64,000 nt of DNA from Candidatus Hydrogenedentota bacterium (GTDB lineage: Bacteria > Hydrogenedentota > Hydrogenedentia > Hydrogenedentales > SLHB01). A model generated the notes under the pieces. The model had not been told where the DNA came from. It searched no databases and was given only the letters and a program-made list of their open reading frames with translations. A program made the position numbers and the translations under genes. The DNA is taken from NCBI GenBank assembly GCA_045863295.1, contig BTWA01000005.1, forward strand, positions 96,001 to 160,000. The letters are read 5' to 3'. Positions within the stretch are counted from its first letter, which is position 1. Every line of letters starts with the position of its first letter. Shown one piece after another: positions 10,687 to 60,880 of the stretch.

Positions 10687-10726
10687 CCGTTGCCATACGC
10701 GTTCGCGGGTTCATGGGTGACGCGGG

Positions 10727-41938: not shown

Positions 41939-42108
41939 TAGTGGGTGGGATTGGACTTGGGTCGGATTCTGTCGACTGACGGAGCGCGCTTTCGATTAAG
42001 CAATGCCAGCCAGATGTCGGTGCTCCAATGTGCCAGCACTGCCGGCGCACGACAAGCGTGAGATACAGACATTCCGGCGCAATCCAGATAGAAGTATGTG
42101 CTCCTCGG

Positions 42109-43822: not shown

Positions 43823-44914
43823 TCATTCTTCCACGGGTGCCGTATACTTGACGCCAACGGACTCCAGTTGTTTCATGAAGCCGTCCTTGTCCACGGCTTT
43901 TTTCCATGCTTCTTCCGGCTCCACGACATCCTCTTTGCACAGGCGCGCCAATTCGTCGTTGAGCAGCGTCATGCCTTCCTTCTTCGCGGTTTGCATGATG
44001 CTCATGATTTGCGAGGTCTTGGCTTCGCGAATTTGCGAGGATACCGCCTGATTCACGATTAGCACTTCGATGGCCGCCACGCGCCCTCCGCCTTTCTTCT
44101 TCAGCAAGTTCTGCGCGATCACGCCTTTCAAGGTGCCCGACAGCATGGTGCGGATTTGATCCTGTTGTTCCGCGGGGAACTGGTCAATCAAGCGATCGAC
44201 GGTGGATATGGCCGTGGTTGTATGCAGCGTGCCGAACACGAGGTGGCCGGTTTCCGCGGTTTCAATGGCGATGTGTGTCGTTTCCAGGTCGCGCATTTCG
44301 CCCACGAGCACGATATCCGGGTCTTCGCGCAGCGCCGCGCGCAAGGCCGCTTTGAAGCTCTTGGTGTGCGTGTGCACTTCGCGCTGGTTGATCAGGCACC
44401 GTTTGTTCTTGTGCACGAACTCGATGGGATCTTCAATGGTGATGATATGCTCACTGCGGGTTGCATTGATCCGGTCGATCAGCGCCGCCAGCGTGGTCGA
44501 TTTTCCGCTGCCGGTGGGTCCGGTCACAAGCACCAGCCCTTTGCCCAGCTGACAGAACTTCTTAACCGCCTCCGGCAGGTTTAATTGCTCGCACGTAAGA
44601 ATCGTGGAAGGTATCAGCCGGAAGACTCCGCCGATCCCCTTGTGATCCATGAACACATTGGAGCGGAACCGTCCTACGTCCGGTATCTCATGCGCGAAAT
44701 CGGTGTCATGCACCGCGGCGAACTCTTCCTGATTCTTGTGGGGCATAATTTCCCACAGCAGGTTTCTGACCGCGTCATCGGACAATTCTTCTTCACTGCG
44801 CAAGGCGACCATCGAGCCGTCTTTGCGGAAGATGGGTTTGTTGCCTGTGCACAAATGAAGGTCGGAAGCCCCATGGTCCACCATCATTTTCAAGTACTTG
44901 TCAATTACGGCCAT
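43823..44914 (-). CDS. pilT: Type IV pilus retraction ATPase (PilT/PilU family)
   Basis: GASDLHL, GPTGSGKSTT, TIEDPIE, LREDPDIVLVGEMRD, GHLVFGTLHT; SD GGGAGA before ATG 44914. Confidence 0.93.
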   Translation of the reverse strand: MAVIDKYLKMMVDHGASDLHLCTGNKPIFRKDGSMVALRSEEELSDDAVRNLLWEIMPHKNQEEFAAVHDTDFAHEIPDVGRFRSNVFMDHKGIGGVFRLIPSTILTCEQLNLPEAVKKFCQLGKGLVLVTGPTGSGKSTTLAALIDRINATRSEHIITIEDPIEFVHKNKRCLINQREVHTHTKSFKAALRAALREDPDIVLVGEMRDLETTHIAIETAETGHLVFGTLHTTTAISTVDRLIDQFPAEQQDQIRTMLSGTLKGVIAQNLLKKKGGGRVAAIEVLIVNQAVSSQIREAKTSQIMSIMQTAKKEGMTLLNDELARLCKEDVVEPEEAWKKAVDKDGFMKQLESVGVKYTAPVEE

Positions 44915-45132
44915 TTGTCCAGTCTCCCTTCCCGACCCCATTCGTACGGGCTCAAACGCTACCACCGTAACTTCAATGAAGCAAATCGTCGCACCGCGCG
45001 GCGGAAATTTGGGCAGTTTTCGCAATTTGGGCCGGAGCGGGGTAATGTCGCATCGCGTTGGCGGTACCATGACCGTGGGTGGTACTCTATTCATTGTGCG
45101 CAACAGAAAACGTTTGGCAAGTGGATAAACGA

Positions 45133-46686
45133 ATGGGTAATTACAGCATTCGACGGGCATTGGCCGCCTCGGCCTTAATCCTCCTTCTTGCCGTGTCCGC
45201 CTATGCTGACGTGACCGTCGGATTGGGCCAGGGTCAGGGTTGGGCGGGCGGCCTTGCCCAGACGCAAGTGAGTCTGCAGGGAAGTCCTGCTCCTGCGGTG
45301 TTGGAAATCCGTTTTTTGTTCGATTCCAACAAACTAGACCTGATCGGAGTGCAACCGGGTCCTGTCGTAACGTCTGCCAATAAGTCGCTCTCATGGGAGG
45401 AATCCCCTCCGGGCCGCGGCAAGATTGTGATTGTTGGTGTTAACACCCAGACCATGTCTAACGGGGTGTTGGCCAGTCTGCAATTTGCCATAAAGTCCGC
45501 GGCCCAAGCCGGCAACGTGATTACTCTCGATGGCGACTCCATGTCGGCCTCGGGCGCGGCGGGTGAAACCCAGGCGACGGTGTTGAACGACGGTCAGGTG
45601 ACCGTTGTGACCTGTTCGCAGCCGGCAACTCCAACCGGACTGACTGCAACCGATGGCGCACACCCCGACAGAGTGCATCTTGCTTGGGCTCCTGTAGCGA
45701 GCACATCGGAGTACGTGATTTACCGATCCACCTCGTCCAACGCACAGACGGCCACCGCAATTGCCACTGTGACGGCAACTGAGTATGACGACCGGTCGGC
45801 GGATGCGCCTGCCGCTGCCGCGGGATGTTCTCCGGGCGGAGTCAAGACCTATAGCTATTGGGTGGCGGCCAAAGCGCCGTGCGGGGAGAGCCCTTTCAGC
45901 GCCAGTGATACCGGTTTTCGCGGATTCGCGAAATTGGCGGTACAAGGCGCTGCAAAAGCGATGACCATGCCTCCGCCTGGGCTTGCCGTTGCCACAGGGT
46001 CGACGGCGGCCGTTCGCCTCACCGCACGGGATCCCATCGACCCGGCCACTTTATGGGGGCAGTTGGATGGGAGGGCGTATCCCGCTGAATGGGTCCCGGT
46101 TAACGAGCGCGACGGCTGGGCTTTGTGCCGCTTGGACGGATCGATAGCTGCGGGAGCTACTTTTATTTGGAGTGCCGGCGCGCGTTCGATTCGTGGTGAA
46201 CTGGTTGGACCGTTCAGTGCGGCCTTCCCGGTTTCGGACGGTGGGGACGCTTCCGATGCACTCCTATCCGATGTTCCTCCGCTGGCGACGGGCGTTGGGC
46301 CGATCCACGTTGTGGGCCCGATGCAAGTATATGACTTACCCTATGTTATCGACATATCCATTCCGGATGGCAGCGAGCCGTCGGAGGTTCAGTTATTTTA
46401 CTACCTTCAGAACGATACAGGCAGCGCCTGGTACCCGGCGGAGGACGTGGAAGGCTGGCTGGCTTCACCGATACAGCCGGTGACTGGCGAGGACGGCCGC
46501 GTTGTCTTGCGCGCCGCAGTCCACCATGGTGGTTTTGTTCAAGTGGGTGTTGGCCATGGTGAGGTACACGCCGCGGGTCTGTCAGGTGGTGTAGACGTAG
46601 CCGGGTTTTCGGGCTCAATCCTTGTCATTGTGCTCCTTTCACTTGCATGTTTGGCCTGCCGGTTTTTCCTTGCTGGCAAGGCCTGA
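45133..46686 (+). CDS. Surface protein: signal peptide, cohesin-like domain, fibronectin-III-like domain, C-terminal TM anchor
   Basis: FDSNKL...NGVLASLQFAI...GQVTV; PTGLTATDG...LAW...YVIYRS...YSYWV; hydrophobic C-terminus. Confidence 0.75.
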   Translation: MGNYSIRRALAASALILLLAVSAYADVTVGLGQGQGWAGGLAQTQVSLQGSPAPAVLEIRFLFDSNKLDLIGVQPGPVVTSANKSLSWEESPPGRGKIVIVGVNTQTMSNGVLASLQFAIKSAAQAGNVITLDGDSMSASGAAGETQATVLNDGQVTVVTCSQPATPTGLTATDGAHPDRVHLAWAPVASTSEYVIYRSTSSNAQTATAIATVTATEYDDRSADAPAAAAGCSPGGVKTYSYWVAAKAPCGESPFSASDTGFRGFAKLAVQGAAKAMTMPPPGLAVATGSTAAVRLTARDPIDPATLWGQLDGRAYPAEWVPVNERDGWALCRLDGSIAAGATFIWSAGARSIRGELVGPFSAAFPVSDGGDASDALLSDVPPLATGVGPIHVVGPMQVYDLPYVIDISIPDGSEPSEVQLFYYLQNDTGSAWYPAEDVEGWLASPIQPVTGEDGRVVLRAAVHHGGFVQVGVGHGEVHAAGLSGGVDVAGFSGSILVIVLLSLACLACRFFLAGKA

Positions 46687-46948: not shown

Positions 46949-49900
46949 GTGTTGGATCGGGACCGAAACTTACTGTTCGGCGTTTTTGCTGTGCAGCTCA
47001 AGCTGGTGTCTCCTGCACAAATCATGGAGGTGGCTGCCGCTTGGGCGGTCGATCCGTCTCGCGATCTACCGGATCGGCTTCGCGATGCCCGTTTGCTGAC
47101 CGAGAGTGATTTCCAGCTTGTCCTTGATTTTGTAAACCGGGCGGTCGAGGCGCATCAAGGCAATCCATCCATGGCGTTGCAGCGATTCGGCGGCGAGGCG
47201 CTTGCCTACCAGTCGCTCCAACTTTCCGGGCCACAGACGGTCCCCGGAGAAACGGCGCGCGACACCAGCCCCGACGTGCTTGAGAATCTACTTTCTGAAG
47301 AACTCCCCAAGATACTGGAAACGACGGGTCGCTATTCGTTGAAGTCGGAACATGCGCGCGGCGGTCAAGGGCGCCTGTTGCTCGTGCACGACGAGCAGAT
47401 GGGCCGTGACATTATTTTGAAAGAGTTGTTGCCGTCCGGGAAGTCGGGCTTGGGAACGACGACGCCGATACGCCAGACGGCGAATCTGGTTTCGCGTTTC
47501 CTTCGCGAGGCCAAGATTACGGGGCAACTGGAGCATCCGTCCATCGTTCCCGTGTACGAATTGGGTTTGCGGCCCGAGGGCGTACCGTATTACACGATGA
47601 AGCTCGTGAAGGGCCGGACGTTATATTCTTCAATCCGCGGTCGCCACACGTTGGAAGAGCGGCTTGGCCTTTTGCGGAATTTTCTCGATCTTTGCGAGGG
47701 GGTGGCGTACGCGCACAGCCGTGGCGTGTTACATCGCGATCTCAAGCCGCAGAATGTCATGGTGGGGCAATTTGGCGAGACGGTCATTCTGGATTGGGGC
47801 CTGGCGAAGATAAAGGGTTCGCTGGACGACCGTGACGAGATTATCACGCAGATGATTTCCAAGCTGCGTATGGAGGAGACCGACCTCAAAGAGACCGCCC
47901 CGGATGCAATACTTGGCACGCCTGTGTACATGTCGCCTGAGCAGGCACGAGGCGATTTGAAGGCCGTGGACGAACGATCGGACATCTATTCGCTGGGGGT
48001 GACGCTGTATGAGGTCATTACCGGCAATATTCCTTACAAGAGCAGTTCCATGAAACAGGTCATGGAAGAAATCGTGACGAAGGATCCGCCGTCCTGCACG
48101 GCGGTGATTCCCGATGTGCCTCCGGAATTGGCGGCGATCTGCGATCGATGCCTTAAGCGGAAGAAGGAAGAACGATACCAGTCGGCGAAAGATCTGGCCG
48201 ACGACGTTGATCGATTTCTGTCGGGTGCTCTGGTCAAGGCCTATTCCTACAAAACCAGTGAGATACTTGCGCGGGTCTACAAGCGGCACCGGTCGATAAT
48301 CAATCTGGCGGCTGCCGCGTCGGCCGTCATCCTGATCACTATTGGCGTTTCCTACGTGCAGGTATTGCAGGCGCGCAACGAGGCGGTAATTGCTCGCGAC
48401 GATGCGCAATCCGAGAATTACGCGAACCAGATGTTGCTGACAGCGCAATACATGCAAGGTAACCACTACGATCTCGCGCGCCGGACGCTGTGGGAAACGG
48501 AAGAAGCCCTTCGGGACTGGGAATGGGGCTATCTGTTGAACCGGTGCAACGTCGAGTTGGCCGTGTTGGAGGATCGTGTTGGATTTGCGTTCCGTCCGGA
48601 CGGTTTGCAGATGGCGACGATATCCCGAAACCGTCCGATTGAAATCGTGAATGCGGCGACCGGGGAAGTGGTGCGCAACATCGCGGAGAGCGCGGTACGA
48701 CCGTTGGATATAGTCTATAGCCCGGACGGGTCGCTGCTTCTGGCTCCGACGATGAGCGGGGCGGTCATGATTTGGGACGCAGTTTCGGGCGATCGCAAAC
48801 GGGCAATTGCCGTGCCCGGAGCGGTGCCTGAACACGCCGCCTTTGATGCCGCCTCCAAGCGTATTGCCACAACGTGGGATGATGATTCCGTCCGGATCTT
48901 CGATGTGGAAACCGGGGCGAGTCTGGCCCAACTAGAGGGAAAAAAATCCGGTATTGGCAAACCGCAATTCAGCCCGGACGGAACGACCCTTGTGTGTGTA
49001 AGCAGTCAGGCCGGGGAGGCGTCGGCTTGGGCGGCCTATGTGCACGACAGTGCCACTGGGGCAATGTTGTTTTCTATTCCGGCGACTGTGGCACAGTTTT
49101 CGCCAGATGGAGCGTTTATCGTTGGAGCGAATCGAACGGGAATTCAGATTTATGAGGCCGGCGACGGAGAAGTCCGGGTAAAGCTGGCGGAGCATCCCGG
49201 ACTTATTGCGGATTTTTGCATATCGCGAGACTCCGGCTTCGTGGCGACCGGTTGCGCGGATGGGGTGGTGCGGGTATTTGATGTTCACACCGGCGAATTG
49301 CTTGGAGAATATAAAGGCGACAACCCGATACGGTTTGTTCGGATCAGTCCGGACAGTCAATATCTGCTGACGGCTACCCTGGACGGCAAACTGACCGTAT
49401 GGGACCGCAATACGGGTCAAGCAATCAACGAGATGCGCGGGCACACGGATCTCGTCCGGTTGGCCGATTTCAGTCCGGATGGATTGCGATTCGCGACCGC
49501 ATCGTTCGACCAGAGCGTGCGCGTGTGGGGCGTGGCGAGTTCGCCGGGGCAGCGTGTGCTGGCTAAGCCGGCGGCCAACGTGAATTTTGCGACGATCAGT
49601 AAGGACCGGTCGCAGTTGGCCGTGTTGTTAAACAACCGCACTTTGGAGATTCGGCGCATCGCGGACGGATCGACCGTAGCGAATTTCGCCGGGCATGGAC
49701 AAAAAGGCGGATTCGCCGCATCGTTCAGCCCCGACGGCGCGCAGTTGGTGGCCGCTCTCGACGACCATACGCCGACCGTTTGGGATATTGCCGCGGGAAC
49801 TGTGGTTACGCAACTCAATGGACATCGCGGAGCCGTACATGGTCTGGCGTACCGCCCCGACGGCGGGACCATTGCCACCGCATCGTGGGACGGAACGGCC

Positions 49901-51277
49901 CGAACGTGGTCTGCTTCGGACGGTAGTGCCCTGTTCACCATGGAAGGGCATGAAGGACCCGTGTTGTGCGTGGCGTTCAGTCCCGACGGAAAACAGATCG
50001 CCTCTGGGTCGAAAGACAAGACCGTACGCCTTTGGGACGCGGCCACCGGCGTTGCGATTCGCACGTTTACCGGCCATTCCGACGCCGTAAGAGGGATTCT
50101 TTTCTGCCGGCTTTCGAATCGCCTGATCAGTTGTTCGGAGGATGGCACGATTCGGTTTTGGGATTTGAGTACAGGAGGAACCGTACTTACGTTGGAAGGT
50201 CACGAGCAGTCGGTACACCGTGTTGCGATGAGTGGGGATGAGCAGCGGCTGGTATCCTCGGCAATCGACGGCACCTTCAAGGTTTGGAAAGTAGAGACCG
50301 GGGAGGCGCTGGCAACGGTAAAGGCAGCCGAGGGCTTTTTGTGGATCGCATCGTTCGATTCTACGGGCCGGGTCATTGTGTCCGCGTCAGCGACCGGGGC
50401 GATCCGGGCTTGGGAGGCCGTTCCGTGGCACGCATCGGATTTGCCCGGGGACACGAGCATGACCGTTCCGCAGCGGGTCGAGGCATTTAGGGCAGCGCAA
50501 TTGGAGGCCGGCGTTGCTCCCGCAAAGCCGGATAAAGTTCACATTATTGTCGCGATTACCCGAGACGACTTGATCGAGGGGATTGGCCGTCTCGCCGATG
50601 GAATAGAGGCTTCCGTGAAATCCATTGTTCCAGCGGCTGTGTTGACGCCCGAGCCCGTCGTGGTAGACGATCGATTGTACGGCGCGGTGGCCAAGCTGTG
50701 TATGAAGCGAGGCGATCAGATTCACGAGATTGGATCCGTGACAGTGCATCCGGACGATTCGTCGGTTGCGGGTCTGCGCCAACTGGCGCAATCCATCGGA
50801 ACGACGGATACGCTTCCCCTAGTGCGGATCACACGGGGCGTTGACACTATCGAATTGCAGCCGGTGGTGGTGACGCGACGAACTCGCGAGGAAGTAGTCT
50901 CCGTACCACGAGCCCGGCTGCAAGAGTATCTCGACAAACAGGTGGAGTATCTGAAATCGAATTCGGCAGGTGTCCTCAAGAAGAGCCGGGCCGATGCCGC
51001 TGAATTGGGAGAGTTGCCCGAGGGTCAGGAGATTCGCGGAATCGTATTCGATACTGACGCCGATCGGATGCCGCAAACGTTGTTGCAGTCAGTTGGACTT
51101 TCCCAAGGGGATCGCCTGATGGTGCTGGAAGGCAAACCGGTAATTTCCTATAGCCTAGCGGTGCAGACGCTGATCGAATTGCAGTCGCGCGCCCACGGTA
51201 GCGAGCCGGTGTCCATTTCCGCGGAAGTACATCGTGGCAATCTGGAAACGGTGCGGCTTAACATACAAATAGAGTGA
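46949..51277 (+). CDS. Receptor-type Ser/Thr kinase: kinase, TM, many WD40 repeats, two PDZ-like C-terminal modules
   Basis: RGGQG, HRDLKPQN, DWGLA, GTPVYMSPEQ; TM near residue 450-470; repeated GH...FSPDG...WD units; MKRGDQIHEIG and GLSQGDRLMVLEG PDZ-like motifs. Confidence 0.93.
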   Translation: MLDRDRNLLFGVFAVQLKLVSPAQIMEVAAAWAVDPSRDLPDRLRDARLLTESDFQLVLDFVNRAVEAHQGNPSMALQRFGGEALAYQSLQLSGPQTVPGETARDTSPDVLENLLSEELPKILETTGRYSLKSEHARGGQGRLLLVHDEQMGRDIILKELLPSGKSGLGTTTPIRQTANLVSRFLREAKITGQLEHPSIVPVYELGLRPEGVPYYTMKLVKGRTLYSSIRGRHTLEERLGLLRNFLDLCEGVAYAHSRGVLHRDLKPQNVMVGQFGETVILDWGLAKIKGSLDDRDEIITQMISKLRMEETDLKETAPDAILGTPVYMSPEQARGDLKAVDERSDIYSLGVTLYEVITGNIPYKSSSMKQVMEEIVTKDPPSCTAVIPDVPPELAAICDRCLKRKKEERYQSAKDLADDVDRFLSGALVKAYSYKTSEILARVYKRHRSIINLAAAASAVILITIGVSYVQVLQARNEAVIARDDAQSENYANQMLLTAQYMQGNHYDLARRTLWETEEALRDWEWGYLLNRCNVELAVLEDRVGFAFRPDGLQMATISRNRPIEIVNAATGEVVRNIAESAVRPLDIVYSPDGSLLLAPTMSGAVMIWDAVSGDRKRAIAVPGAVPEHAAFDAASKRIATTWDDDSVRIFDVETGASLAQLEGKKSGIGKPQFSPDGTTLVCVSSQAGEASAWAAYVHDSATGAMLFSIPATVAQFSPDGAFIVGANRTGIQIYEAGDGEVRVKLAEHPGLIADFCISRDSGFVATGCADGVVRVFDVHTGELLGEYKGDNPIRFVRISPDSQYLLTATLDGKLTVWDRNTGQAINEMRGHTDLVRLADFSPDGLRFATASFDQSVRVWGVASSPGQRVLAKPAANVNFATISKDRSQLAVLLNNRTLEIRRIADGSTVANFAGHGQKGGFAASFSPDGAQLVAALDDHTPTVWDIAAGTVVTQLNGHRGAVHGLAYRPDGGTIATASWDGTARTWSASDGSALFTMEGHEGPVLCVAFSPDGKQIASGSKDKTVRLWDAATGVAIRTFTGHSDAVRGILFCRLSNRLISCSEDGTIRFWDLSTGGTVLTLEGHEQSVHRVAMSGDEQRLVSSAIDGTFKVWKVETGEALATVKAAEGFLWIASFDSTGRVIVSASATGAIRAWEAVPWHASDLPGDTSMTVPQRVEAFRAAQLEAGVAPAKPDKVHIIVAITRDDLIEGIGRLADGIEASVKSIVPAAVLTPEPVVVDDRLYGAVAKLCMKRGDQIHEIGSVTVHPDDSSVAGLRQLAQSIGTTDTLPLVRITRGVDTIELQPVVVTRRTREEVVSVPRARLQEYLDKQVEYLKSNSAGVLKKSRADAAELGELPEGQEIRGIVFDTDADRMPQTLLQSVGLSQGDRLMVLEGKPVISYSLAVQTLIELQSRAHGSEPVSISAEVHRGNLETVRLNIQIE

Positions 51278-51303: not shown

Positions 51304-51399
51304 ATGATTTCCCAATGCCCAATGCTGGGAAAAAAGGTGGAGGATTCGCCAGGAAGCGGTCAGTACGTGTGCAATGCCTTGAGCGATCCATGCCTCTAG
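51304..51399 (+). pseudogene. 3' remnant (or micro-ORF) of a fourth member of the Cys-tail family
   Basis: Reads MISQCPMLGKKVEDSPGSGQYVCNALSDPCL-stop; CNALSDPC is identical to the end of the next gene. Confidence 0.75.
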
Positions 51400-51443
51400 A
51401 GCAGCGGAAGTGTTGATGACAACCAACTCCAAGGAGACCGACC

Positions 51444-52262
51444 ATGAGTTACCCGCCCACCGACTTGCCTCACAGTTGTCAGGCTTCGCTATGGATAGCA
51501 CAACAAGCGTTTCCTGCACGGTCGATGGAGTATATCTACGACCTGCCGCTTTACACCGACAACAATTCCGGGTTGCTCGATGTCATGTACGATTTTCTCG
51601 AGGGTACAGCGGACTATACGTATGTGTCCCAGAAGCGCAACAAAGAGATACGGGATTCGATTGATGTTTTCAGGGGCGAAAACACTGCGGGAGACAAGAT
51701 ACAGACGATCAAGCAGATGTTGCGAACGGGAAAGCGGCGCAGCAATGCCAATCCGGGGTCTAAAACACTAAGCGGCTTTTTGCGTGTGATGTTGGACTCT
51801 GGCATTTACTTCGCGAACAACCACACGAATTTGAACAAGGTCAACGAGGTAAAAGCGCTGCTGGATGGAACGGATCCCTATGACACTCCCCTTTGGGACA
51901 TGACGGGAAGTATCGAGGGTGGCCCGCAGAATATCCGATTTGGGAGCTTGACCTATGAGCAATTGTTCAACACGCAACTCCGGAAATTGGATAAAACGCT
52001 TTTCCGGGCTGTGCGGCGAGCGAAGCGGTTGAGCGTGCTCTGGTGCGATGTCACACAACGGTACACCGGCGATCCCGGCGGATCGATCTTCAAAGGGCTG
52101 CCGGACGACATAGTGAAGAAAGGCGGCGACGGAAACGATCAATGTTGTTACAACGGCGCATGCATCACATCTGAGTTTCCCGGCGACTACTGCGGCCAGA
52201 TAGACGATGGCACGGGGACCGGCACGTTTACGTGCAACGCGTTGAGCGATCCGTGCCACTAA
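51444..52262 (+). CDS. Unassigned protein with six-Cys C-terminal tail, paralogue 1
   Basis: SD AAGGAG; alignable end to end with the next two ORFs; ends CCYNGAC...DYC...CNALSDPCH. Confidence 0.9.
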   Translation: MSYPPTDLPHSCQASLWIAQQAFPARSMEYIYDLPLYTDNNSGLLDVMYDFLEGTADYTYVSQKRNKEIRDSIDVFRGENTAGDKIQTIKQMLRTGKRRSNANPGSKTLSGFLRVMLDSGIYFANNHTNLNKVNEVKALLDGTDPYDTPLWDMTGSIEGGPQNIRFGSLTYEQLFNTQLRKLDKTLFRAVRRAKRLSVLWCDVTQRYTGDPGGSIFKGLPDDIVKKGGDGNDQCCYNGACITSEFPGDYCGQIDDGTGTGTFTCNALSDPCH

Positions 52263-52303
52263 CCTGACCACAAGTTGACCGAAACCCAACAAGGAGACCA
52301 CGC

Positions 52304-53173
52304 ATGCCGTACCCGCCAGCACACTTGCCTGAAAGTTGTCAGCTTACGTTGTGGCTGGCAGAGTATTGCTTTGTCACGGTATCGCCTGGGCCCATTTTTA
52401 CACCGCATTCGCTTCAGACAATTTATCGGACTCCTTTGTACACCACGTCCGGCGCGCCTGGGATATTGAACATACTCAAGGAGGCGTTTAAGGCCAACCC
52501 GACCTTGCCGCCGCAAGGTTCACCCGCGCCGCCCATCGGCAACTACATTACGCCGGCAAGGCGAGCCCGCGTCGTGAAAGCGATCGATGTCTTTGCGCTT
52601 GGCGGCGCCAATGCACTGACCATAGAGCAAATGCTGATTCAGGGCATCCGGCGAAATCGCGATGCACGAACCCCGCGGACCCTGGAAGGGATTCTCAAAG
52701 TGTTGGCGAACAACGGCATCTACCTGGCCAACAATCACACGTCGCCGAGCGCCAGGACGGAAATCGAGACTCTTTTGGTGGGACGTGCCGGCCTTGAGAG
52801 CAGTCTGTGGGATTATATGGGGACGCTGGGGGCAGGGGGCAATGTTCAGTTTGGCAGCATTACGATGCGGCAACTCTTTGAGACTCCTGCTGCGAACCTG
52901 ACGGGCGAGTTTTTCCTTGCGGTTCGGCGAGCGAAGCGGATGGGTATTTTGTGGGCGCATCCGAGGTACAGCGCGATTGGCGACCCGACGGGTATCGCAC
53001 TTGCGTCGGCTTCTGGATTTGAGGGCGCCGCCATGTTCTACGGCCGGGAAGGCAACAAGAAGTGCTGTTATGAAGGCGCCTGCTGGGATTCCGAGGACGA
53101 CGACGACTATTGCGAACCGGTCGAGGGAGTCAATCCGCCGGTATGCAATGCGATGAGCGATCCGTGTCATTGA
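52304..53173 (+). CDS. Unassigned protein with six-Cys C-terminal tail, paralogue 2
   Basis: SD AAGGAG; ends CCYEGAC...DYC...CNAMSDPCH. Confidence 0.9.
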   Translation: MPYPPAHLPESCQLTLWLAEYCFVTVSPGPIFTPHSLQTIYRTPLYTTSGAPGILNILKEAFKANPTLPPQGSPAPPIGNYITPARRARVVKAIDVFALGGANALTIEQMLIQGIRRNRDARTPRTLEGILKVLANNGIYLANNHTSPSARTEIETLLVGRAGLESSLWDYMGTLGAGGNVQFGSITMRQLFETPAANLTGEFFLAVRRAKRMGILWAHPRYSAIGDPTGIALASASGFEGAAMFYGREGNKKCCYEGACWDSEDDDDYCEPVEGVNPPVCNAMSDPCH

Positions 53174-53229
53174 ACTAAGAGAAGCCGGTTGCGGAACTGG
53201 CGTATCGGGTACTTAGAAGGAGAGTTTGC

Positions 53230-54075
53230 ATGGCCTATCCCCCATCCAACCTGCCGAAGAGTTGCCGATTGACCTTGTGGCTGGCGGAGAGCGCCTATAA
53301 CGTGTCTGTGCCCACCCATGACAATCCCAACAACACCCGGGCACGAACCCTGCGAGAGATTTACGAGTTACCGCTTTATGGAGGCAATGCCGGGCTGCTG
53401 GACCTGATGTACAATCACATAAACAATGCGTCGAACTGGCGCGACTACATGACGGATACGGTGCGTTCCGATATTCTGAATGCCATTGTGAGATTCAAAG
53501 AGAAGGACCAAGACCGCAGTCACCGCTTTACGATTCGTAAAATGCTGCGAGACGGCGAACGGCGGAGCAACGCGAATCCTGGCGCCGGCACGTTGTCTGG
53601 CTTTCTGCGCGTCATGCTCAACAATGGGGTGTACTTCCCGAACAATCACACTGACGAAGACAAGTTGGGCGCAATCGGTGACATTTTGGATGATCCCAAG
53701 CCCGGCAAGACTCCGCTTTGGGACATGGAAGGCGAGATCAAGGATCTTGGCAAGTACAAGTTTGGCGATTTAACCATGAAGATGTTGTTTGAAACCCCGC
53801 TCAAGAAACTCGACCGGGAATTGTTTCGTGCAGTCCGTAAGGCGAAGCGCATGGGCATTATGTGGGCCGATTTGAAGTATAGGGAAATTGGCAATCCAAA
53901 ACCGGTAAGTGGCAAGCGAGATGACCAAATCGAGATGCTGTTTTACGGTGAGGAGAACCAGAATTGTTGTTTTCAAGGCACTTGTTGGCCCTCCGACGAT
54001 CATGACGATTATTGCGGCGCCATTGAGGGTAGCAATCCACCTGAATGCAGCGCCATGAGTGACCCTTGCCACTAA
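53230..54075 (+). CDS. Unassigned protein with six-Cys C-terminal tail, paralogue 3
   Basis: SD AAGGAG; ends CCFQGTC...DYC...CSAMSDPCH. Confidence 0.9.
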   Translation: MAYPPSNLPKSCRLTLWLAESAYNVSVPTHDNPNNTRARTLREIYELPLYGGNAGLLDLMYNHINNASNWRDYMTDTVRSDILNAIVRFKEKDQDRSHRFTIRKMLRDGERRSNANPGAGTLSGFLRVMLNNGVYFPNNHTDEDKLGAIGDILDDPKPGKTPLWDMEGEIKDLGKYKFGDLTMKMLFETPLKKLDRELFRAVRKAKRMGIMWADLKYREIGNPKPVSGKRDDQIEMLFYGEENQNCCFQGTCWPSDDHDDYCGAIEGSNPPECSAMSDPCH

Positions 54076-54097
54076 ATTGAAGTGCATTTGTGATTTG

Positions 54098-54134
54098 TTG
54101 CCCATCGGCGATCCGTCTCGGTGGGCAATTTTTT
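54098..54134 (+). terminator. Rho-independent terminator closing the paralogue array
   Basis: TTGCCCATCG...CGGTGGGCAA stem followed by TTTTTT. Confidence 0.8.
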
Positions 54135-54321: not shown

Positions 54322-54591
54322 ATGTCGCCGGATGTGGTTATTAACTTGGGCCGTGACGCGATGCTCGTCACGTTGCTGGTTTCAGCACCGATGCTGCTAT
54401 CCGGGATGATTGTCGGGCTCGTTATCAGCATCTTCCAGTCGGTCACCCAGATTCAGGAAATCACGCTCACCTTCGTGCCTAAAATTGTGGTGGTGATGGT
54501 GGCGTTTCTGATTTTTCTTCCTTGGATGATGTCGGTATTGCTGGGATTCGTACAACCCTTGTTTGGCGAGTTCGGGACTATCTTGTTCTGA
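54322..54591 (+). CDS. fliQ: Flagellar export protein FliQ
   Basis: GLVISIFQSVTQIQEITLTFVPK. Confidence 0.96.
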   Translation: MSPDVVINLGRDAMLVTLLVSAPMLLSGMIVGLVISIFQSVTQIQEITLTFVPKIVVVMVAFLIFLPWMMSVLLGFVQPLFGEFGTILF

Positions 54592-54645
54592 ATCTCGTGC
54601 AGGGCAGCCCCCGTAGCCTTTGGCTGCGGGAGTCGAAAGGCACTG

Positions 54646-55416
54646 ATGGTATTTGAGGTCGAAGTATTCAAGGTCTTTGCGCTGGTGATGATACGTTTCA
54701 GCGGGCTGATCGTGTCGGCGCCCATCCTTGGATCCAACAATTTTCCGGTGATGGCGAAGGCGGGTCTGGCGGCGTTTTGCGCGTTGCTGATCACGCCGGT
54801 GTTGCCATCTTTGCCCGAGCCTTTGCCGGACACGGTGCTGGGACTCGCCGCGATGGGCGTTGGTGAACTGCTCATCGGGTTGATGATGGGGTTTGTGATG
54901 ACGTTGCTGTTTGCCGCGATTCAGGTGGGCGGGCAAATCATCGACATGCTCAGCGGGTTCGCGTTGATGAACATCTTCAATCCGGCCCTGGAAACGCAGG
55001 TGCCCATTTTTGGTTTCTTTTTGTTCATCATGGCGACGCTGTACCTGTTGGTTTTGAATCTCCATCACGTAATGTTGCGCGCGTTGGCGGCGACGTTTGA
55101 CAAGATACCGCTGGGCGGTTTCGTGGCGAATCCCGCGTTGCTTCGTGAAGTGAGCACGTGGGGCAGCGCGATGTTCTATGACGGTCTGTTGATAGCTGCT
55201 CCAGTGACGGCGGCGCTGCTTTTGACGTATGTGACGATGGGGCTGTTGGGGCGGCTGGTGCCTCAATTGCATTTGTTCGTGGTTGGATTTCCGTTGACGA
55301 TTGGCATGGGGCTTCTGGTGGTGGCTTTCTCGATCGGCCTGTATCTGCAGGTGGTCGACGGCATGTATCACCGGATGATCCAGAACTTGACCGTGGTTGT
55401 ACGAGGGATGGCTTAA
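54646..55416 (+). CDS. fliR: Flagellar export protein FliR
   Basis: RFSGL..SAP, ELLIGL, GQIID, RLVPQL.LF.VGFP. Confidence 0.95.
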   Translation: MVFEVEVFKVFALVMIRFSGLIVSAPILGSNNFPVMAKAGLAAFCALLITPVLPSLPEPLPDTVLGLAAMGVGELLIGLMMGFVMTLLFAAIQVGGQIIDMLSGFALMNIFNPALETQVPIFGFFLFIMATLYLLVLNLHHVMLRALAATFDKIPLGGFVANPALLREVSTWGSAMFYDGLLIAAPVTAALLLTYVTMGLLGRLVPQLHLFVVGFPLTIGMGLLVVAFSIGLYLQVVDGMYHRMIQNLTVVVRGMA

Positions 55417-55419
55417 CGC

Positions 55420-56538
55420 ATGGCGGAAGACCTAGGCGGAGAGAAGACATTACCCGCGTCGCCACGGAAGATCAGTCAGGCGCGCGAGGAAGGAAACGTC
55501 GCCAAGAGCGCTGATTTGAACGCAGCGCTGGCGCTTCTTGTCGCCGCGTTCGGCCTGTGGTACATGGGCCGCGAATTGATGGAACGCATGGTGCATACCA
55601 CCGCGGTGTACTTCGAGAACATCGGCACATTTGAAGTGACGGTTGAGAACGCGGTGGACGTGGCCGTGGATGTGACCCAACGGTTGGGCGTGTTGGTGCT
55701 GCCGTTGGCCATACTGTTGACGGTGGCCGGCCTGGCCGTGAATTTTCTGCAGGTGGGGTTTTTGTACGCCCCGAAGGCGCTGCAGCCCAAATTCAGCCGT
55801 TTGAATCCGATTGCGGGATTCAGCCGGTTCTTTAAACTGCGCACGCTGGTGGATTTGATCAAGTCGTTGCTGAAAGTGGCGATTGTTACCTGGATCGTGT
55901 ATCTGACGCTGCGCAGCCGGATGGACGATTTGTTGTTGTACATGTTTTTGACGCCGCTTGGCATTACGCACCAAATGGCCGATTTGATTTACCTTGTGTG
56001 GCTGCGCGCCGCGGGGGCCATGTTGATTCTCGGACTGCTCGACTTTGGTTTTCAGAAGTGGCAGTACAACAAAGACCTGATGATGACCGTGCAGGAGATG
56101 AAAGAAGAGAACAAGCAGATGGAAGGCGATCCGCGCATCAAACAGCGCATTCGCCAGATCCAACGCCAGATGGCGATGCAGCGGATGATGAAAGAAGTGC
56201 CGAAGGCGGACGTCATCATCACCAACCCGATTCGATTTGCGGTGGCGATCCGGTATGACATGGGCAACATGGCGGCGCCGGTGGTTGTGGCCAAAGGCGC
56301 GCGTTTGCTGGCCAAGCGCATCCGCGAAATCGCGATGGAGAATCAGGTGCCCATTATCGAGAAACCGGAATTGGCCCGGGCTCTGTATAAGGAAATAGAA
56401 GTGGGCCATCCGATTCCGGAGAAGTTGTTCAAGGCGGTCGCGGAAGTACTTGCGTTCGTGTACCGGATCGATCGCCGGCAGGAAAAGATTCGCGAACGGC
56501 AGGCGAGCATGGTCCGTCCGACGTACGCGACGCAATAG
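55420..56538 (+). CDS. flhB: Flagellar export protein FlhB
   Basis: EKT...AREEGNV, EGDPRIK, ADVIITNP, APVVVAKG. Confidence 0.96.
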   Translation: MAEDLGGEKTLPASPRKISQAREEGNVAKSADLNAALALLVAAFGLWYMGRELMERMVHTTAVYFENIGTFEVTVENAVDVAVDVTQRLGVLVLPLAILLTVAGLAVNFLQVGFLYAPKALQPKFSRLNPIAGFSRFFKLRTLVDLIKSLLKVAIVTWIVYLTLRSRMDDLLLYMFLTPLGITHQMADLIYLVWLRAAGAMLILGLLDFGFQKWQYNKDLMMTVQEMKEENKQMEGDPRIKQRIRQIQRQMAMQRMMKEVPKADVIITNPIRFAVAIRYDMGNMAAPVVVAKGARLLAKRIREIAMENQVPIIEKPELARALYKEIEVGHPIPEKLFKAVAEVLAFVYRIDRRQEKIRERQASMVRPTYATQ

Positions 56539-56608
56539 ACGCGAGAGCAATAGGATTTGAGCGCTTCCCGCGAACGGGGAAGTACTCTTATTTGAGCGAG
56601 GGAATACT

Positions 56609-58702
56609 TTGGCGGTAGTGCCCCGGGAAATGACGATGCAGCCGGACACCGGCTGGTCGCGTATGCTGCGCAATCAGGATTTGGCGCTGGCGGTTGCCGT
56701 TGTGCTGATCCTGGCGGTGCTATTCATTCCCGTGCCCGCGATCGTGCTCGACGTGTTGCTGACACTCAATATTTCCCTTTCGGTGGTCATTCTCCTGGCG
56801 ACGTTGTATCTACGCGAACCCGTGGAATTTGCGGTATTTCCCTCGTTGTTGCTGATGTTGACCCTATTCCGGCTGAGCTTAAACGTAGCTTCGACCCGTC
56901 TTATACTCTCGGATGCAAGCGCCGGAAACGTAATTGACGCATTCGGAACTTTTGTGACGAGCGGAAGCTATGTTGTCGGCGTTGTTATTTTCTCCATTCT
57001 GGTTGTGATTCAATTCGTGGTCATTACGCGCGGCGCCACGCGCATCTCCGAAGTGGCTGCGCGGTTTACGTTGGACGCCATGCCCGGCAAGCAGATGGGC
57101 GTGGACGCGGATTTGAACGCGGGTCTTATCACGGAAGAACAGGCTCGGGCACGGCGGCACAAGATCGAGCGCGAAGCCGATTTCTATGGAGCGATGGACG
57201 GCGCGACGAAGTTCGTTCGCGGCGAGGCCATTGCTGGACTCATCATTACGCTTATCAACATCTCGGCGGGTTTCATTATCGGCATGCTGATGATGGGCAT
57301 GGACGTATCCGAATCCGCCGCCATCTATACCCGGCTTACGATTGGCGATGGCCTGGTTTCGCAGATTCCTTCGCTTCTGGTGTCCACGGCGGCAGGCATG
57401 ATTGTCACGCGGGCGGTTTCGGAAGACAACCTGGGTTCGGATCTGACGCGTCAGATGACGCGTTATCCCCGGGCCTTGGGGATAGCGGCGCTGATGCTGG
57501 CTGGCTTTGCCGTAGTGCCGGGAATGCCGACCGTACCGTTCCTGCTGGTGGCCGGATTTCTGGGCATGCTTGCGTTTCAAACGACGCAAGCGTTGAAAAG
57601 AGAAGAAGCGCAGGCCGTGGCCGAGAAGGCGATGGAAAAGGAAATCGCGCCGGAGCAGGCTGCTCCGCGCACGGAAGATTTGCTCACGGTGGATCCGCTG
57701 AAGATTGAGTTGGGATACGGATTGATTTCGCTTGCAGATCCCAAACAGGGCGGCGATTTGTTGACGCGTGTTCAGATCATCCGGCAACAGTTGGCGACCA
57801 AGCTGGGGATAATTGTGCCGGTTGTGCGCATTGTCGACAACATGCGCCTGAAGCCATCGGAATACCGCATCAAGATACGCGAAGCGGAAGTGGCCCGTTA
57901 CGAATTGATCACTGATCGCTACCTCGCCATGAATCCCGGTCTTGTAGACGAAGAAGTGCCGGGCGTGGCGACCAAAGAGCCAGCTTTTGGGTTGCCCGCG
58001 GTTTGGGTGTCCGACGAATACCGGCATCGCGCGGAGCTGATGGGATATACGATTGTGGAACCGACGGCGGTGTTGGCTACTCACCTGACCGAAATCCTGA
58101 CTGGTCACGCGGATGAACTATTGACACGTCAGGACGTGCGCAATCTGGTGGATCATGTAAAAGAGTCGGCGGCGTCCGTGGTTGAAGAACTGACACCGGG
58201 AATACTTTCACTCGGTGAGATACAGAAAGTGCTTCAGAACTTGTTGCGGGAGCGCGTTTCCATCCGGAATTTGGAGAGCATTCTGGAGGTGTTGGCGGAC
58301 TTTGGTCCGCGAACGCGCGATCCCGAGTTGCTGACGGAATATTCGCGTCATGCCTTGGCCCGTCAGATCAGCGCCGAGTATGCCGATGAAGACGGCGCAT
58401 TGCGTGTGGTTACGCTTGCACCCAATGTCGAGCGCGAGATATTGGATGCGATACAGCAGAGCCAAACCGGCGAATATATTCCGTTGCCCCCCTCGCGCGT
58501 GGACGAATTAGGGCGAAAGACGGTGGACGCCGTTCAGTCCCTGGTGATGGCGGGATACGAGCCTGTAGTGCTGACGTCCGCGCAGGTCCGGCGCTATTTC
58601 AAGCGGATTGCGGATCGGCACATGCCAAAGATAGTTGTGTTGTCCTACAATGAAATCGATCCGGCTGTGCGGCTGGAAAGCGAAGGACAGGTGAGCGCTT
58701 AA
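56609..58702 (+). CDS. flhA: Flagellar export protein FlhA
   Basis: EVAARFTLDAMPGKQM, FYGAMDGA, IGDGLVSQIP. Confidence 0.97.
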   Translation: MAVVPREMTMQPDTGWSRMLRNQDLALAVAVVLILAVLFIPVPAIVLDVLLTLNISLSVVILLATLYLREPVEFAVFPSLLLMLTLFRLSLNVASTRLILSDASAGNVIDAFGTFVTSGSYVVGVVIFSILVVIQFVVITRGATRISEVAARFTLDAMPGKQMGVDADLNAGLITEEQARARRHKIEREADFYGAMDGATKFVRGEAIAGLIITLINISAGFIIGMLMMGMDVSESAAIYTRLTIGDGLVSQIPSLLVSTAAGMIVTRAVSEDNLGSDLTRQMTRYPRALGIAALMLAGFAVVPGMPTVPFLLVAGFLGMLAFQTTQALKREEAQAVAEKAMEKEIAPEQAAPRTEDLLTVDPLKIELGYGLISLADPKQGGDLLTRVQIIRQQLATKLGIIVPVVRIVDNMRLKPSEYRIKIREAEVARYELITDRYLAMNPGLVDEEVPGVATKEPAFGLPAVWVSDEYRHRAELMGYTIVEPTAVLATHLTEILTGHADELLTRQDVRNLVDHVKESAASVVEELTPGILSLGEIQKVLQNLLRERVSIRNLESILEVLADFGPRTRDPELLTEYSRHALARQISAEYADEDGALRVVTLAPNVEREILDAIQQSQTGEYIPLPPSRVDELGRKTVDAVQSLVMAGYEPVVLTSAQVRRYFKRIADRHMPKIVVLSYNEIDPAVRLESEGQVSA

Positions 58703-58703
58703 C

Positions 58704-59996
58704 ATGGATCAGAAGCTGAGCCGTTATCGGGGTGACACGTTGGACGAAGCCTACGCGGAGATGCGCAGGGCCTTGGGGCCTGATGCGATTGTGCTGCGCA
58801 CGGCGTTTGTGCGTGAGGGCGGTCTCAGGGGATTTCTGGGCAAGAAGCGCGTTGAATTGACGGCCACCCACGCAGATGCGCCCGGAACATCCGATCGGCG
58901 GAAGAGCCCGATGGAGCGGAAGTACTCGGCTCAGATGAGCGGTCCGGACTCCAAGATTGGCTCGGACGAGCGCGTTGCGGATTCAGTGGCTCATTTCCAG
59001 CGCATGTTGACGGATGCGAGGCCTCGGGTGGGTAGTGGCCGCACATTTTCGCCGAGTATGCGGGGCAACGCGGCCATAGCCGTGGATGATAGTCCGATGG
59101 TCAGGGCGTTGCGCAGCGAGATACGCGAAATGCGATCGCTGATGGAAGTGCTGGTGGCCGAGAGTTCCTCAGAGACGGCGGCACCGGAGTATGCGCCCCA
59201 GTATCGGATGCTTGTGGAATCAGGCGTTTCGCGGGAGGCTGCGGCCTCACTGCTGGCACACGTGGCGCGCACGAGCGATGCGGACGTGATCCGGCGGCCT
59301 GAGGTGTTTCAACAACGCATCCACAACGAGATCCAGAAGCGGGTTTCGGTTACTGGTGGGGTTCGTGTCCGGCTTGGCACGTGCCGTAAAGTGGCGCTTG
59401 TAGGACCTACAGGCGTGGGAAAAACGACCAGCATTGCGAAGATGGCCGCCCGGCTTGCCGTGCATTCCAGGGCGCGCGTGGCCTTGATCACGGCCGACAC
59501 CTATCGCGTTGCGGCGCCGGATCAGTTGCGCGTGTATGCGAATATTATTGGCGTTCCCCTCCATGTGGTTCATGACAGCCGGGAGATGGCGGACGCTATT
59601 TTGGCGGTGAAGGACTATGATTTGGTCCTGATCGACACGGCTGGGGGCAGTCCGTTCAATACCACTCAAATTGGGGAGTTGGGTCAGGTGCTTCATGCCG
59701 CGTACCTCGACGAGGTCATGCTCGTGCTCGCGGCGAATACACGCGTGGAAGACATGCGGCACGCCGTGACGCATTTTGGCGCGCTTCGCCCCACGTCGAT
59801 ACTGTTTTCGAAACTGGATGAAACCACGTCGTATGGCGCCATATACACGATGGCGGAAGATACGGATTTACCATTGAGTTACTTCAGCACGGGTCAGAGC
59901 GTACCGGAGGACTTTGTAGCGGCAAAACCAGAGACAGTGGCGGGCCTGCTTTTTGACGGAACCAAAACCATGGCGGCGCTCACGCGCGAACCGTAG
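58704..59996 (+). CDS. flhF: SRP-like GTPase FlhF
   Basis: GPTGVGKTT, DTYR, DTAG, KLDE, GQSVPED; follows flhA. Confidence 0.93.
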   Translation: MDQKLSRYRGDTLDEAYAEMRRALGPDAIVLRTAFVREGGLRGFLGKKRVELTATHADAPGTSDRRKSPMERKYSAQMSGPDSKIGSDERVADSVAHFQRMLTDARPRVGSGRTFSPSMRGNAAIAVDDSPMVRALRSEIREMRSLMEVLVAESSSETAAPEYAPQYRMLVESGVSREAAASLLAHVARTSDADVIRRPEVFQQRIHNEIQKRVSVTGGVRVRLGTCRKVALVGPTGVGKTTSIAKMAARLAVHSRARVALITADTYRVAAPDQLRVYANIIGVPLHVVHDSREMADAILAVKDYDLVLIDTAGGSPFNTTQIGELGQVLHAAYLDEVMLVLAANTRVEDMRHAVTHFGALRPTSILFSKLDETTSYGAIYTMAEDTDLPLSYFSTGQSVPEDFVAAKPETVAGLLFDGTKTMAALTREP

Positions 59997-60007
59997 GAAT
60001 TCTTATC

Positions 60008-60880
60008 GTGTCGGACCAGGCGAGCAATCTTCGGGAATTCATACGCGACAACAAACGTGGGGCGCGAGTATTTGCCGTCACGAGTGGCAAAGGTGGCGTC
60101 GGCAAGACCAGCACGAGCATCAATCTTGCGATCGCGCTCGCGCAGCGGCAGTCACGCGTTGTGGTATTGGACGCGGATTTGGGTCTGGCCAATGTCGAAG
60201 TGATGCTTGGTTTGAATTCCGTTTACAACTTGCAGCACGTGATCACCAATGAACGCAGCATGATGGACATCCTTGTGCAGGGGCCGGGCGGTATCGAGAT
60301 CGTTCCCGGAAGCTCGGGGATAGCCCGGATGGTGGACTTGGGACCGCGCGCCCGGCAAAACGTGTTGAATGGGCTTCGCGATCTTCAGGCGAAGACGGAC
60401 TTCATTATCATCGACACCATGGCGGGGATTGGCCAGAATGCCGTGGCGTTTGCAGCGGCTGCCGACGAAGTGCTGCTGATATCAACACCGGAGCCGTCGT
60501 CTATTGTCGATGCGTATGCGACAGCCAAGACGATATTTCAATTGCGCGAAGATGCTTTTATACGCCTCATCGTGAACCAGGCGGGCAGTGCGCAACAGGC
60601 GCAAGCCGTGGCCGACAAGTTGGTGGCTGTAGCGCAGCAGTTTCTTGCGCGCAAGCTGCATTTCCTGGGTTGGATACCGCGGGATCCCCATGTGCAACAA
60701 GGTATCATGCAGTCGTACCCGTTTTACTTGCGGTTTCCGCACGCCCCGGCGTCCAAGGCGCTTGATGAGATTTCCGAACGCCTGCACCAGCAACGCCCGC
60801 AAACCGTGGATCGGCAACGGGCCGGCGGCGGCTTTTTCAGACGCATTGCGGAGAATCTGGGACTCGCGGGCAATGGCTGA
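60008..60880 (+). CDS. flhG: MinD-like ATPase FlhG/FleN
   Basis: SDQA N-terminus, SGKGGVGKT, DADLGLAN, PEPSSIVDAY. Confidence 0.93.
   Translation: MSDQASNLREFIRDNKRGARVFAVTSGKGGVGKTSTSINLAIALAQRQSRVVVLDADLGLANVEVMLGLNSVYNLQHVITNERSMMDILVQGPGGIEIVPGSSGIARMVDLGPRARQNVLNGLRDLQAKTDFIIIDTMAGIGQNAVAFAAAADEVLLISTPEPSSIVDAYATAKTIFQLREDAFIRLIVNQAGSAQQAQAVADKLVAVAQQFLARKLHFLGWIPRDPHVQQGIMQSYPFYLRFPHAPASKALDEISERLHQQRPQTVDRQRAGGGFFRRIAENLGLAGNG

Follow-up and report, generated by a model that had tools for sequence, protein, structure and literature searches.

A tandem array of Cys-module proteins behind a WD40-bearing receptor Ser/Thr kinase in Hydrogenedentota: an undescribed protein superfamily and its candidate role as kinase partner

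We describe a tandem array of three paralogous genes, and the receptor kinase gene that precedes it, in a stretch of 64,000 nucleotides from a Candidatus Hydrogenedentota bacterium (GenBank assembly GCA_045863295.1, contig BTWA01000005.1, positions 96,001 to 160,000 of the forward strand). This whole stretch is referred to below as the window, and positions are counted from its first letter. The three array genes lie on the + strand and encode paralogue 1 (272 residues, 51444..52262), paralogue 2 (289 residues, 52304..53173) and paralogue 3 (281 residues, 53230..54075). Each has its own Shine-Dalgarno sequence AAGGAG (at 51431-51436, 52291-52296 and 53217-53222, respectively), placed 7-8 nt before the ATG, and each ends in a cysteine-rich module, coded at 52143-52259, 53063-53170 and 53965-54072. 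The gene upstream, whose stop codon lies 166 nt before paralogue 1 on the same strand, encodes a receptor Ser/Thr kinase of 1442 residues (46949..51277, + strand) composed of an N-terminal domain, a Pkinase domain, one transmembrane helix, WD40 propellers and a C-terminal PDZ-like tandem. An earlier note, made from the letters alone, had reported the three open reading frames and their ribosome-binding sites, and both were confirmed.

In a MAFFT alignment, copy 1 shares 40% identity with copy 2 and 46% with copy 3, and 81 columns are invariant across the three copies; the sequence motifs and the Cys tail that had first suggested a common family are all among these columns. The tail of the window copies can be written as CC-x4-C-x9-C-x10/13-C-x6-C-H-stop. 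Its ending SDPCH, previously described as invariant, is so among the window copies, but its final His varies across homologues. The annotated starts are the first possible start codons 3' of an in-frame stop, and extension of the reading frames upstream is therefore impossible. A hydrophobicity scan of the three proteins found no signal peptide or transmembrane segment, the maximum 19-residue Kyte-Doolittle mean being 0.65-1.25, compared with 2.17 for the transmembrane helix of the kinase. The array is closed by a hairpin resembling an intrinsic terminator (54097..54134, + strand), which consists of a 12-bp stem with a 9-nt loop (54097-54129) followed by U6 and precedes fliQ. Its folding free energy is -18.8 kcal/mol (z -2.5; equally stable folds in 3 of 200 shuffles), which bears out the single closing terminator proposed earlier. 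A simple consensus scanner does not list this hairpin because the 9-nt loop exceeds its 8-nt limit.

Traces of a further copy are found just before paralogue 1, where a reading frame of 31 codons ending in ...VCNALSDPCL (51304..51399, + strand) has no visible Shine-Dalgarno sequence, contains three Cys and aligns with the three tails over its final ~35 nt. A degenerate DNA pattern of the last eight tail codons matches four times in the 6.3-Mb genome, all at the array locus, the matches being the three copies and this reading frame at 51304-51399, and the reversed control pattern matches nowhere in the genome. The short reading frame is probably what is left of a fourth copy that was deleted, the alternative being a tiny stand-alone peptide. 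No family copies beyond the three in the window were found in the source genome. The array is not an assembly artefact, because short sludge metagenome contigs from three other studies span, at >=99% identity, the junctions between relic and copy 1, copy 1 and copy 2, and copy 2 and copy 3.

A HMMER search with the profile of the three copies against 1.84 billion representative proteins yielded 27 matches at E <= 1e-3. These comprise the three window proteins, 22 relatives of 139-345 residues and two long repeat proteins (P0021 and P0025), whose 8-9 matching stretches are confined to profile positions 34-70 and which were dropped. Loss of the Cys tail among homologues had been named in the earlier note as an observation that would speak against its proposal, and no such loss was seen: all 22 metagenomic relatives keep the module. 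We then refer throughout to a 25-sequence alignment made of the three window copies, 20 of the 22 relatives (the fragments P0006 and P0023 being left out) and two reading frames from related genomes. Ten of its columns are invariant (C12, P223, N243, C246, C247, Y261, C262, C273, S277 and C280), eight of them within the last 39 residues, and identity of the bodies between subfamilies is 19-30%. Within the family, conservation is highest in the Cys module.

The family has no counterpart in the collections that we searched. The best Pfam match is PF17236 (E 0.078, 12.9 bits, under the cutoff of 24.1) and the best NCBIfam match is NF033409 (E 0.12, far below cutoff); PADLOC gave no match for the three window proteins, and the ten family clusters that were looked up are unnamed in every source. 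In a word-index protein search the three-copy alignment recovers only the three window proteins and the 25-sequence alignment recovers five proteins, all nameless. As single queries, P0027 and P0022 had no match in genome contigs, and P0010 and P0011 had none in metagenome contigs. A match of copy 3 to a Lachnospiraceae metagenome-assembled genome (28% identity over 68 residues, E 9e-5) is weak and was taken as spurious. The three window copies form one clade (support 100/99) in which copies 1 and 3 are sisters (97/86), with terminal branches of 0.64-0.73 changes per site. Tandem pairs of family genes occur at other loci as well (L020, L021, L023/L031 and L026), and the triplication is specific to the lineage of the window. 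Among the metagenomic relatives, P0004 and P0009 share the largest contig size of 20,285, and P0011 and P0013 share 23,312, which suggests that the relatives bearing twin-arginine translocation (Tat) signals, described below, also occur as several copies per contig.

The structure of paralogue 3 was modelled with AlphaFold2 on the 25-sequence alignment, with a mean predicted local distance difference test score (pLDDT) of 87.2 and a predicted template modelling score of 0.85. The model consists of a mainly helical body, a linker (residues 231-240) with a mean pLDDT of 48, and a small three-stranded beta module that bears the Cys residues (pLDDT 84-92). The proposed division into a body of ~230 residues and a Cys module of ~36-39 residues thus stands. 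The idea that the body is a mere carrier or leader does not, as it is predicted to be a compact, confidently folded domain. Comparison of this model with known structures revealed no related fold. The best Foldseek match in the PDB has an E of 0.57, its matched rows covering residues 1-241 and barely including the Cys module; VIA-align against 48,161 representative PDB chains gave a best Z of 2.7 and none of Z >= 5, the Cys module again being barely covered; and a structure search of BFVD gave a best E of 0.8. In the ESM Atlas, feature matches reach <=0.90 and lead to unnamed clusters, and structure matches have template modelling scores (TM-scores) of <=0.35. A profile search of PDB sequences returned no match. 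The statement that no family could be recognised therefore holds for Pfam, NCBIfam, the PDB-sequence profile search, Foldseek and VIA-align alike, and the proteins constitute an undescribed, lineage-restricted superfamily outside known families and with no detectable known fold.

The Cys module was compared across 53 sequences. Its Cys count is four in 19 sequences, six in 28, eight in five and five in one, that is, the number is even in 52 of the 53. The four-Cys core has the spacing C-x4-6-C-x7-10-C-x6-11-C, and every six-Cys form consists of this core plus one Cys directly before core Cys 1 and another six residues after core Cys 4. These two additional residues, the leading and the terminal Cys, are always either both present or both absent. 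In the eight-Cys forms P0004 and P0022 there is one extra Cys near the module start and one on a C-terminal extension. Even numbers, conserved spacing and gain or loss in pairs are features of a disulfide-rich mini-domain. Since the pairs join the start of the module to its end, disulfides are favoured over a metal sink, and the module of the window copies would be held by three of them. This pattern in turn argues for an oxidising, extracytoplasmic location. Zinc-ribbon and Fe-S sites of the Cys4 type have CxxC-type knuckles or known cluster-binding spacings; no CxxC knuckle occurs in the core in any of the 53 sequences.

The kinase upstream of the array has a Pkinase domain at residues 179-412 (PF00069, 1.1e-30, 107 bits against a cutoff of 31.7) and, with its catalytic motifs, is a Hanks-type Ser/Thr kinase. 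In its translation the HRDLKPQN motif is intact and DWG takes the place of the canonical DFG at residue ~275. A single predicted transmembrane helix, IINLAAAASAVILITIGVS (48296..48352, + strand; residues ~450-468, Kyte-Doolittle mean 2.17), is found at the same position in orthologues from loci L037, L039 and L040, and WD40 propellers occupy residues ~588-1161 (Pfam, 3.2e-71). Because the only membrane-spanning helix follows the kinase domain, the WD40 and PDZ parts should lie outside the cytoplasm, as an ectodomain, with the kinase domain inside. This topology agrees with predictions for similar single-pass kinases of Planctomycetota, for which a cytoplasmic Pkinase and a periplasmic WD40 region are both predicted (PMC11032199). 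Matches of PADLOC to PD-T4-6 models fall only on the generic kinase domain (residues ~125-440), and a reading of the locus as a defence system was rejected.

The C-terminal 290 residues of the kinase (50405..51274, + strand) have no match in Pfam, PDZ domains included, and were modelled with AlphaFold2 on 23 orthologous C-termini (pLDDT 90.5). The best Foldseek match of this model in the PDB is the periplasmic PDZ tandem of an RseP homologue (3wkm/3wkl, E 4e-5, prob 1.00); further matches include the PDZ pair of DegQ/DegP, with E ranging over the matches from 4e-5 to 5e-4 and prob from 0.89 to 1.00. Single PDZ domains of EpsC, MucP and DegS align to the kinase C-terminus with 3.2-3.7 Å over 77-85 columns. 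The low TM-scores (0.16-0.21 by query) reflect a different arrangement of the two domains. The kinase C-terminus is thus predicted to hold the PDZ fold twice.

The pairing of this kinase type with a Cys-module gene was investigated from both sides. On the kinase side, a profile of the last 290 residues was searched across 135 genomes of the phylum-level group, and the kinase type was present in 51 of them, all from one order. Thirty kinase loci were returned, of which 27 could be evaluated with downstream DNA, the remaining three (L053, L056 and L069) ending at the kinase. A partner gene is located downstream on the same strand in 20 of the 27, encoding a protein of 202-430 residues with a Cys-module C-terminus. 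It is the next gene in these loci, save that in L046 a gene for an S8 protease stands between the two. The gaps between kinase and partner are 22-193 nt (18 loci, with L042 measured from a later start codon, and L046 and L052 outside the measurement). On the family side, a search with the 25-sequence profile found 23 places corresponding to 20 loci, and the coordinates of the two profile searches were combined to count how these are distributed: 14 lie downstream of a kinase on the same strand, one is a divergent neighbour, two have no kinase nearby and three are left unassigned. Among close relatives, six of eight loci in four other genomes have the kinase type immediately upstream. The neighbourhood analysis that the earlier note had proposed thus yields a conserved upstream receptor kinase, a context missing from the note itself.

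The downstream proteins are diverse in sequence, and profile-profile comparison was used to relate them. With hhalign, the 25-sequence profile aligns with three distant groups at 97.3%, 98.8% and 98.5% probability over 222-236 columns, and with six single proteins, including the Tat-bearing L051 and the L066 protein with a signal for general secretion (Sec), at 92.9-98.2%. The group of partners of 430 residues joins the superfamily through its C-terminal half at 95-96%. Judged by these alignments, the downstream proteins are one superfamily, homologous over nearly their full length. In the proteins of 430 residues (L057, L058, L059 and L064) the 25-sequence profile matches residues 40-205 (68.8%) and the profiles of groups g4 and f5 match residues ~215-430 (95-96%), which suggests that these partners contain two copies of the body domain. 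The pairing with the kinase consequently outlasts divergence to the limit of profile-profile detection. It has also been kept where the cassette is duplicated on a single contig (G110 C72) and where a protease gene has been inserted (L037), and the other flanking genes differ between loci. In two loci of genus g4 a third conserved reading frame follows the Cys-module gene in the sense of the kinase (3295-3849 in L049, 3307-3852 in L050). It contains acidic DxDxD-like stretches (…DEDGDL…DEPDYDSDLY…) and may belong to the cassette of this genus as an additional part.

Export signals are present in part of the family. An RRxF[LIM] twin-arginine motif occurs in eight of the 53 sequences; the TIGR01409 model scores L019 at 18.5 bits, over its cutoff of 16.7, and P0009, P0010 and P0011 at 13.6-14.6 bits, under it. 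The L066 protein has a Sec-like N-terminus, and both this protein and the Tat-bearing L051 are encoded directly behind a kinase of the type described here. In the close relatives that bear Tat signals the mature part starts 2-10 residues before a 'YP' motif, and it is at this mature motif that the window copies begin, without a Tat signal. The earlier statement that Sec and Tat signals are lacking is accordingly right for the window copies but not for the family, given the eight twin-arginine sequences and the Sec-like one.

Serine protease genes stand next to the family gene in four of the eight close loci. Two of these loci encode S8 subtilases (6.5e-58 and 1.6e-34); the L034 enzyme has a Sec-like signal, and the L037 enzyme has an RRxFL motif and is encoded between the kinase and the family gene. 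The other two encode GDSG proteins of 313 and 325 residues in which H, D and S are conserved in chymotrypsin order, and whose only PDB sequence matches, to a Glu-specific protease and to alphavirus capsid proteases, are weak (E 0.6-0.9). A single-query search of the source genome did not find the GDSG protein of the G034 loci, and no protease gene lies beside the window array. The earlier observation that no maturase of ribosomally synthesised and post-translationally modified peptides (RiPPs) is visible in the window was confirmed and extended to related loci: Pfam detects no RiPP modifying enzyme (radical-SAM, YcaO, LanM/LanB or similar) in 13 window neighbours or in 24 reading frames chosen from beside the family genes among the 94 of seven related loci, and the S8 and GDSG proteases were the only enzymes of a processing kind found. 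Furthermore, the RiPP pattern of a conserved leader and a variable core is reversed here, since eight of the ten invariant columns are in the last 39 residues.

Given this evidence, we see about an even chance that the array proteins are cognate extracytoplasmic partners or ligands of the upstream kinase. The kinase and the three paralogues would form one transcription unit. Each protein would consist of a mainly helical domain of ~230 residues, a short flexible linker and a C-terminal beta module with three disulfides, and would be exported, the window copies lacking a signal included. Outside the cytoplasm the Cys-module proteins would bind the WD40 and PDZ ectodomain and act on it as ligand or co-sensor, so that kinase output would depend on them. 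Processing of the partner by a dedicated S8 or chymotrypsin-like protease would occur in some lineages, and in the window lineage triplication would supply three diverged partner versions for one kinase. The earlier note had left a choice among peptide precursor, metal sink and signalling ligand; the pairing with a receptor kinase favours the signalling role, and the even, paired Cys speak against the metal sink. Complex prediction with the PDZ tandem and the family, run with no controls and with the WD40 part left out, gave scores of 0.01 and 0.00 against a mark of 0.32, which we count neither for nor against binding.

A more specific form of this proposal is that the locus encodes a receptor-kinase module together with its own protein ligand. 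Through its WD40 and PDZ ectodomain the single-pass kinase would read a disulfide-stapled module that would be carried on, or cleaved by a dedicated serine protease from, a pro-protein of new fold. We offer it tentatively, as a possibility with less than even support.

Several observations weigh against a partnership between the array proteins and the kinase. Seven of the 27 evaluable kinase loci have no downstream partner (L054, L055, L060-L063 and L070; the L070 genome has a two-gene family array divergently upstream of the kinase), and family loci on contigs C158 and C267 of genome G034 have no kinase nearby. The counts of loci also overstate the independent support because the genomes are kin. 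In addition, no signal peptide can be recognised in any of the three window proteins or in 44 of the 53 relatives, which leaves their route to the ectodomain unexplained. Tat export, where it does occur, is the usual route for proteins that acquire their fold or cofactor before leaving the cytoplasm and would fit a metal site too. Finally, classical PDZ domains bind free C-termini that end in a hydrophobic residue, and the partner C-termini (…DPCH, …DPC, …MSD and …NCPP) are not hydrophobic; the last residue varies among the members (H, C, P, V, G, D, S or T). The G034 copy on contig C267 (L035) lies amid genes for a bacterial microcompartment shell protein, EutN/CcmL, a class II aldolase and an aldehyde dehydrogenase (5536-7586 and 10127-11443).

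One alternative, which overlaps with the proposal, is that the ~230-residue part serves as a pro-domain or chaperone, from which a serine protease frees the disulfide-rich module as a diffusible pheromone, bacteriocin or toxin. The kinase would then sense the peptide in a quorum-type manner or control its production. The conserved Cys scaffold with variable loops between the Cys, the low-confidence linker at residues 231-240, the S8 and chymotrypsin-like protease genes beside the family gene in four of the eight close loci, and the recurrent tandem diversification all speak for it. We nevertheless consider this alternative unlikely. The window array has no adjacent protease gene and the G034 GDSG protease has no detected counterpart in the source genome (by a single query), the body is predicted to fold as well as an autonomous domain does, the inspected loci show no evident transporter or immunity gene, and no cleavage motif is conserved. 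The sequence RRAKR of the window copies, which we examined as a furin-like cleavage site, is unconserved in homologues and lies inside a predicted helix, and such a role is not supported.

A different alternative places the proteins in the cytoplasm, as Zn- or Fe-S-binding substrates, adaptors or redox- or metal-sensing regulators of the cytoplasmic part of the kinase, with the Tat-bearing homologues being exported with the cofactor already bound. This would account for the missing signal peptides of the window copies and of most relatives and for the predominance of the Tat type where signals are present; moreover, the minimal four-Cys core would suit one tetrahedral site and the loops between the Cys are acidic. 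The gain and loss of Cys in pairs (4, 6, 8), however, with each added pair connecting the module start to the extension, would be needless for a metal site, CxxC knuckles are absent, the terminal His varies, and one homologue has a Sec-like signal, Sec being a route that exports unfolded chains. On balance we regard a cytoplasmic metal protein as quite doubtful. That the pairing is merely inherited gene order without functional coupling, the family being an independent structural, adhesive or antagonistic exported protein, is improbable, for although the G034 copies on C158 and C267 lie among unrelated genes without a kinase and all compared genomes belong to one order-level group, the pairing outlives divergence that only profile-profile comparison detects and persists through the cassette duplication in G110 C72, the protease insertion in L037 and changes of the flanking genes.

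The remaining genes around the cassette are of other kinds. A flagellar export cluster (54322-60880, + strand) lies directly 3' of the array terminator and includes genes for FliQ-like (Bac_export_3), FliR-like (Bac_export_1), FlhB and FlhA (FHIPEP) proteins, an FlhF-like GTPase of the SRP54 type and an ATPase of the ParA/MinD type; no FliP-like gene was seen just upstream of this cluster, where the kinase cassette is found instead. A flagellar connection of the array was considered and set aside as coincidence, given that the terminator intervenes and that no flagellar genes occur in the inspected related loci. On the other side, a protein of 535 residues with a cohesin domain is encoded just upstream of the kinase (45079-46686, + strand). 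An ATPase of the type II secretion system E type is encoded on the strand opposite to the kinase (43823-45394, - strand), and a reading frame of 579 residues (42028-43767, + strand) has no Pfam match.

Several known systems resemble parts of this locus. The plan of the kinase, Hanks-type, single-pass and with a periplasmic WD40 region, is of a known kind. Its nearest likeness is with the single-pass Hanks-type kinases of Planctomycetota, which, in the part of the source available, share the cytoplasmic Pkinase, the one transmembrane helix and the long extracytoplasmic WD40 arrays (PMC11032199). The window kinase differs from the kinases described there in its predicted C-terminal PDZ tandem and in its conserved downstream Cys-module partner; within the same available text the words 'cysteine' and 'neighbor' have 0 occurrences, and no such partner is described. 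Likewise, no paper on a bacterial Ser/Thr kinase that carries a PDZ tandem, or that is encoded together with a Cys-rich partner, turned up in a literature search at the level of titles and abstracts. We rate the partner family and its pairing with the kinase as new in kind.

The PDZ domains of RseP, DegP/DegQ and DegS are periplasmic modules that read out protein C-termini, and the RseP tandem, the PDZ1-PDZ2 pair of DegP/DegQ and the PDZ domain of DegS are the best structural matches of the C-terminal 290 residues of the window kinase. In contrast to these envelope-protease sensors, the output here is a kinase instead of a protease, the domains have no Pfam PDZ match, and the partner C-termini are not hydrophobic. 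The six Cys in the last ~36-39 residues of a precursor-like protein also call to mind SCIFF/ranthipeptides, which have precursors of ~45 residues with six Cys in ~45 residues, an NCBIfam/TIGRFAM model and an adjacent radical S-adenosylmethionine (radical-SAM) maturase. The window proteins, however, have 272-289 residues, no NCBIfam match, no radical-SAM gene nearby and a folded 'leader' of 230 residues. Among eukaryotes, TGF-beta pro-proteins pair with receptor Ser/Thr kinases. Plant receptor-like kinases, according to the available parts of three sources, pair with the cysteine-rich RALF, EPF and SCR peptides, which are cut by subtilases (PMC6749341, PMC13082318, PMC12807370). What the eukaryotic pairs share with the present family is a logic of a single-pass kinase, a Cys module at the C-terminal end of a larger putative precursor, S8 proteases nearby in some loci and tandem copies of the candidate ligand genes. 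This is an analogy only, with no relationship of sequence or fold, and the ectodomain here is of the WD40 and PDZ type.

To our knowledge, the ligands or partners of bacterial Hanks-type receptor kinases are largely unidentified, and we know of nothing reported on the inputs of the long WD40-bearing kinases, which are expanded in some environmental phyla. A conserved, co-oriented partner gene, usually within 200 nt of the kinase gene, is a concrete candidate input for one class of these kinases. The family further contributes a domain that is predicted with confidence but for which no known fold could be detected, as well as a new format of Cys module, whose evolution from four to six and then to eight Cys, in pairs, can be read from the sequences. 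Should the protease-linked members be processed, they would represent a new bacterial route to disulfide-rich secreted peptides that does without RiPP enzymes. If the proteins are indeed ligands of the kinase, a single receptor would receive several inputs from the tandem paralogues, as in self or kin recognition or quorum-like signalling, and the system would be a convergent prokaryotic counterpart of the Cys-rich-peptide/receptor-kinase systems of plants and of TGF-beta-type pro-ligands.

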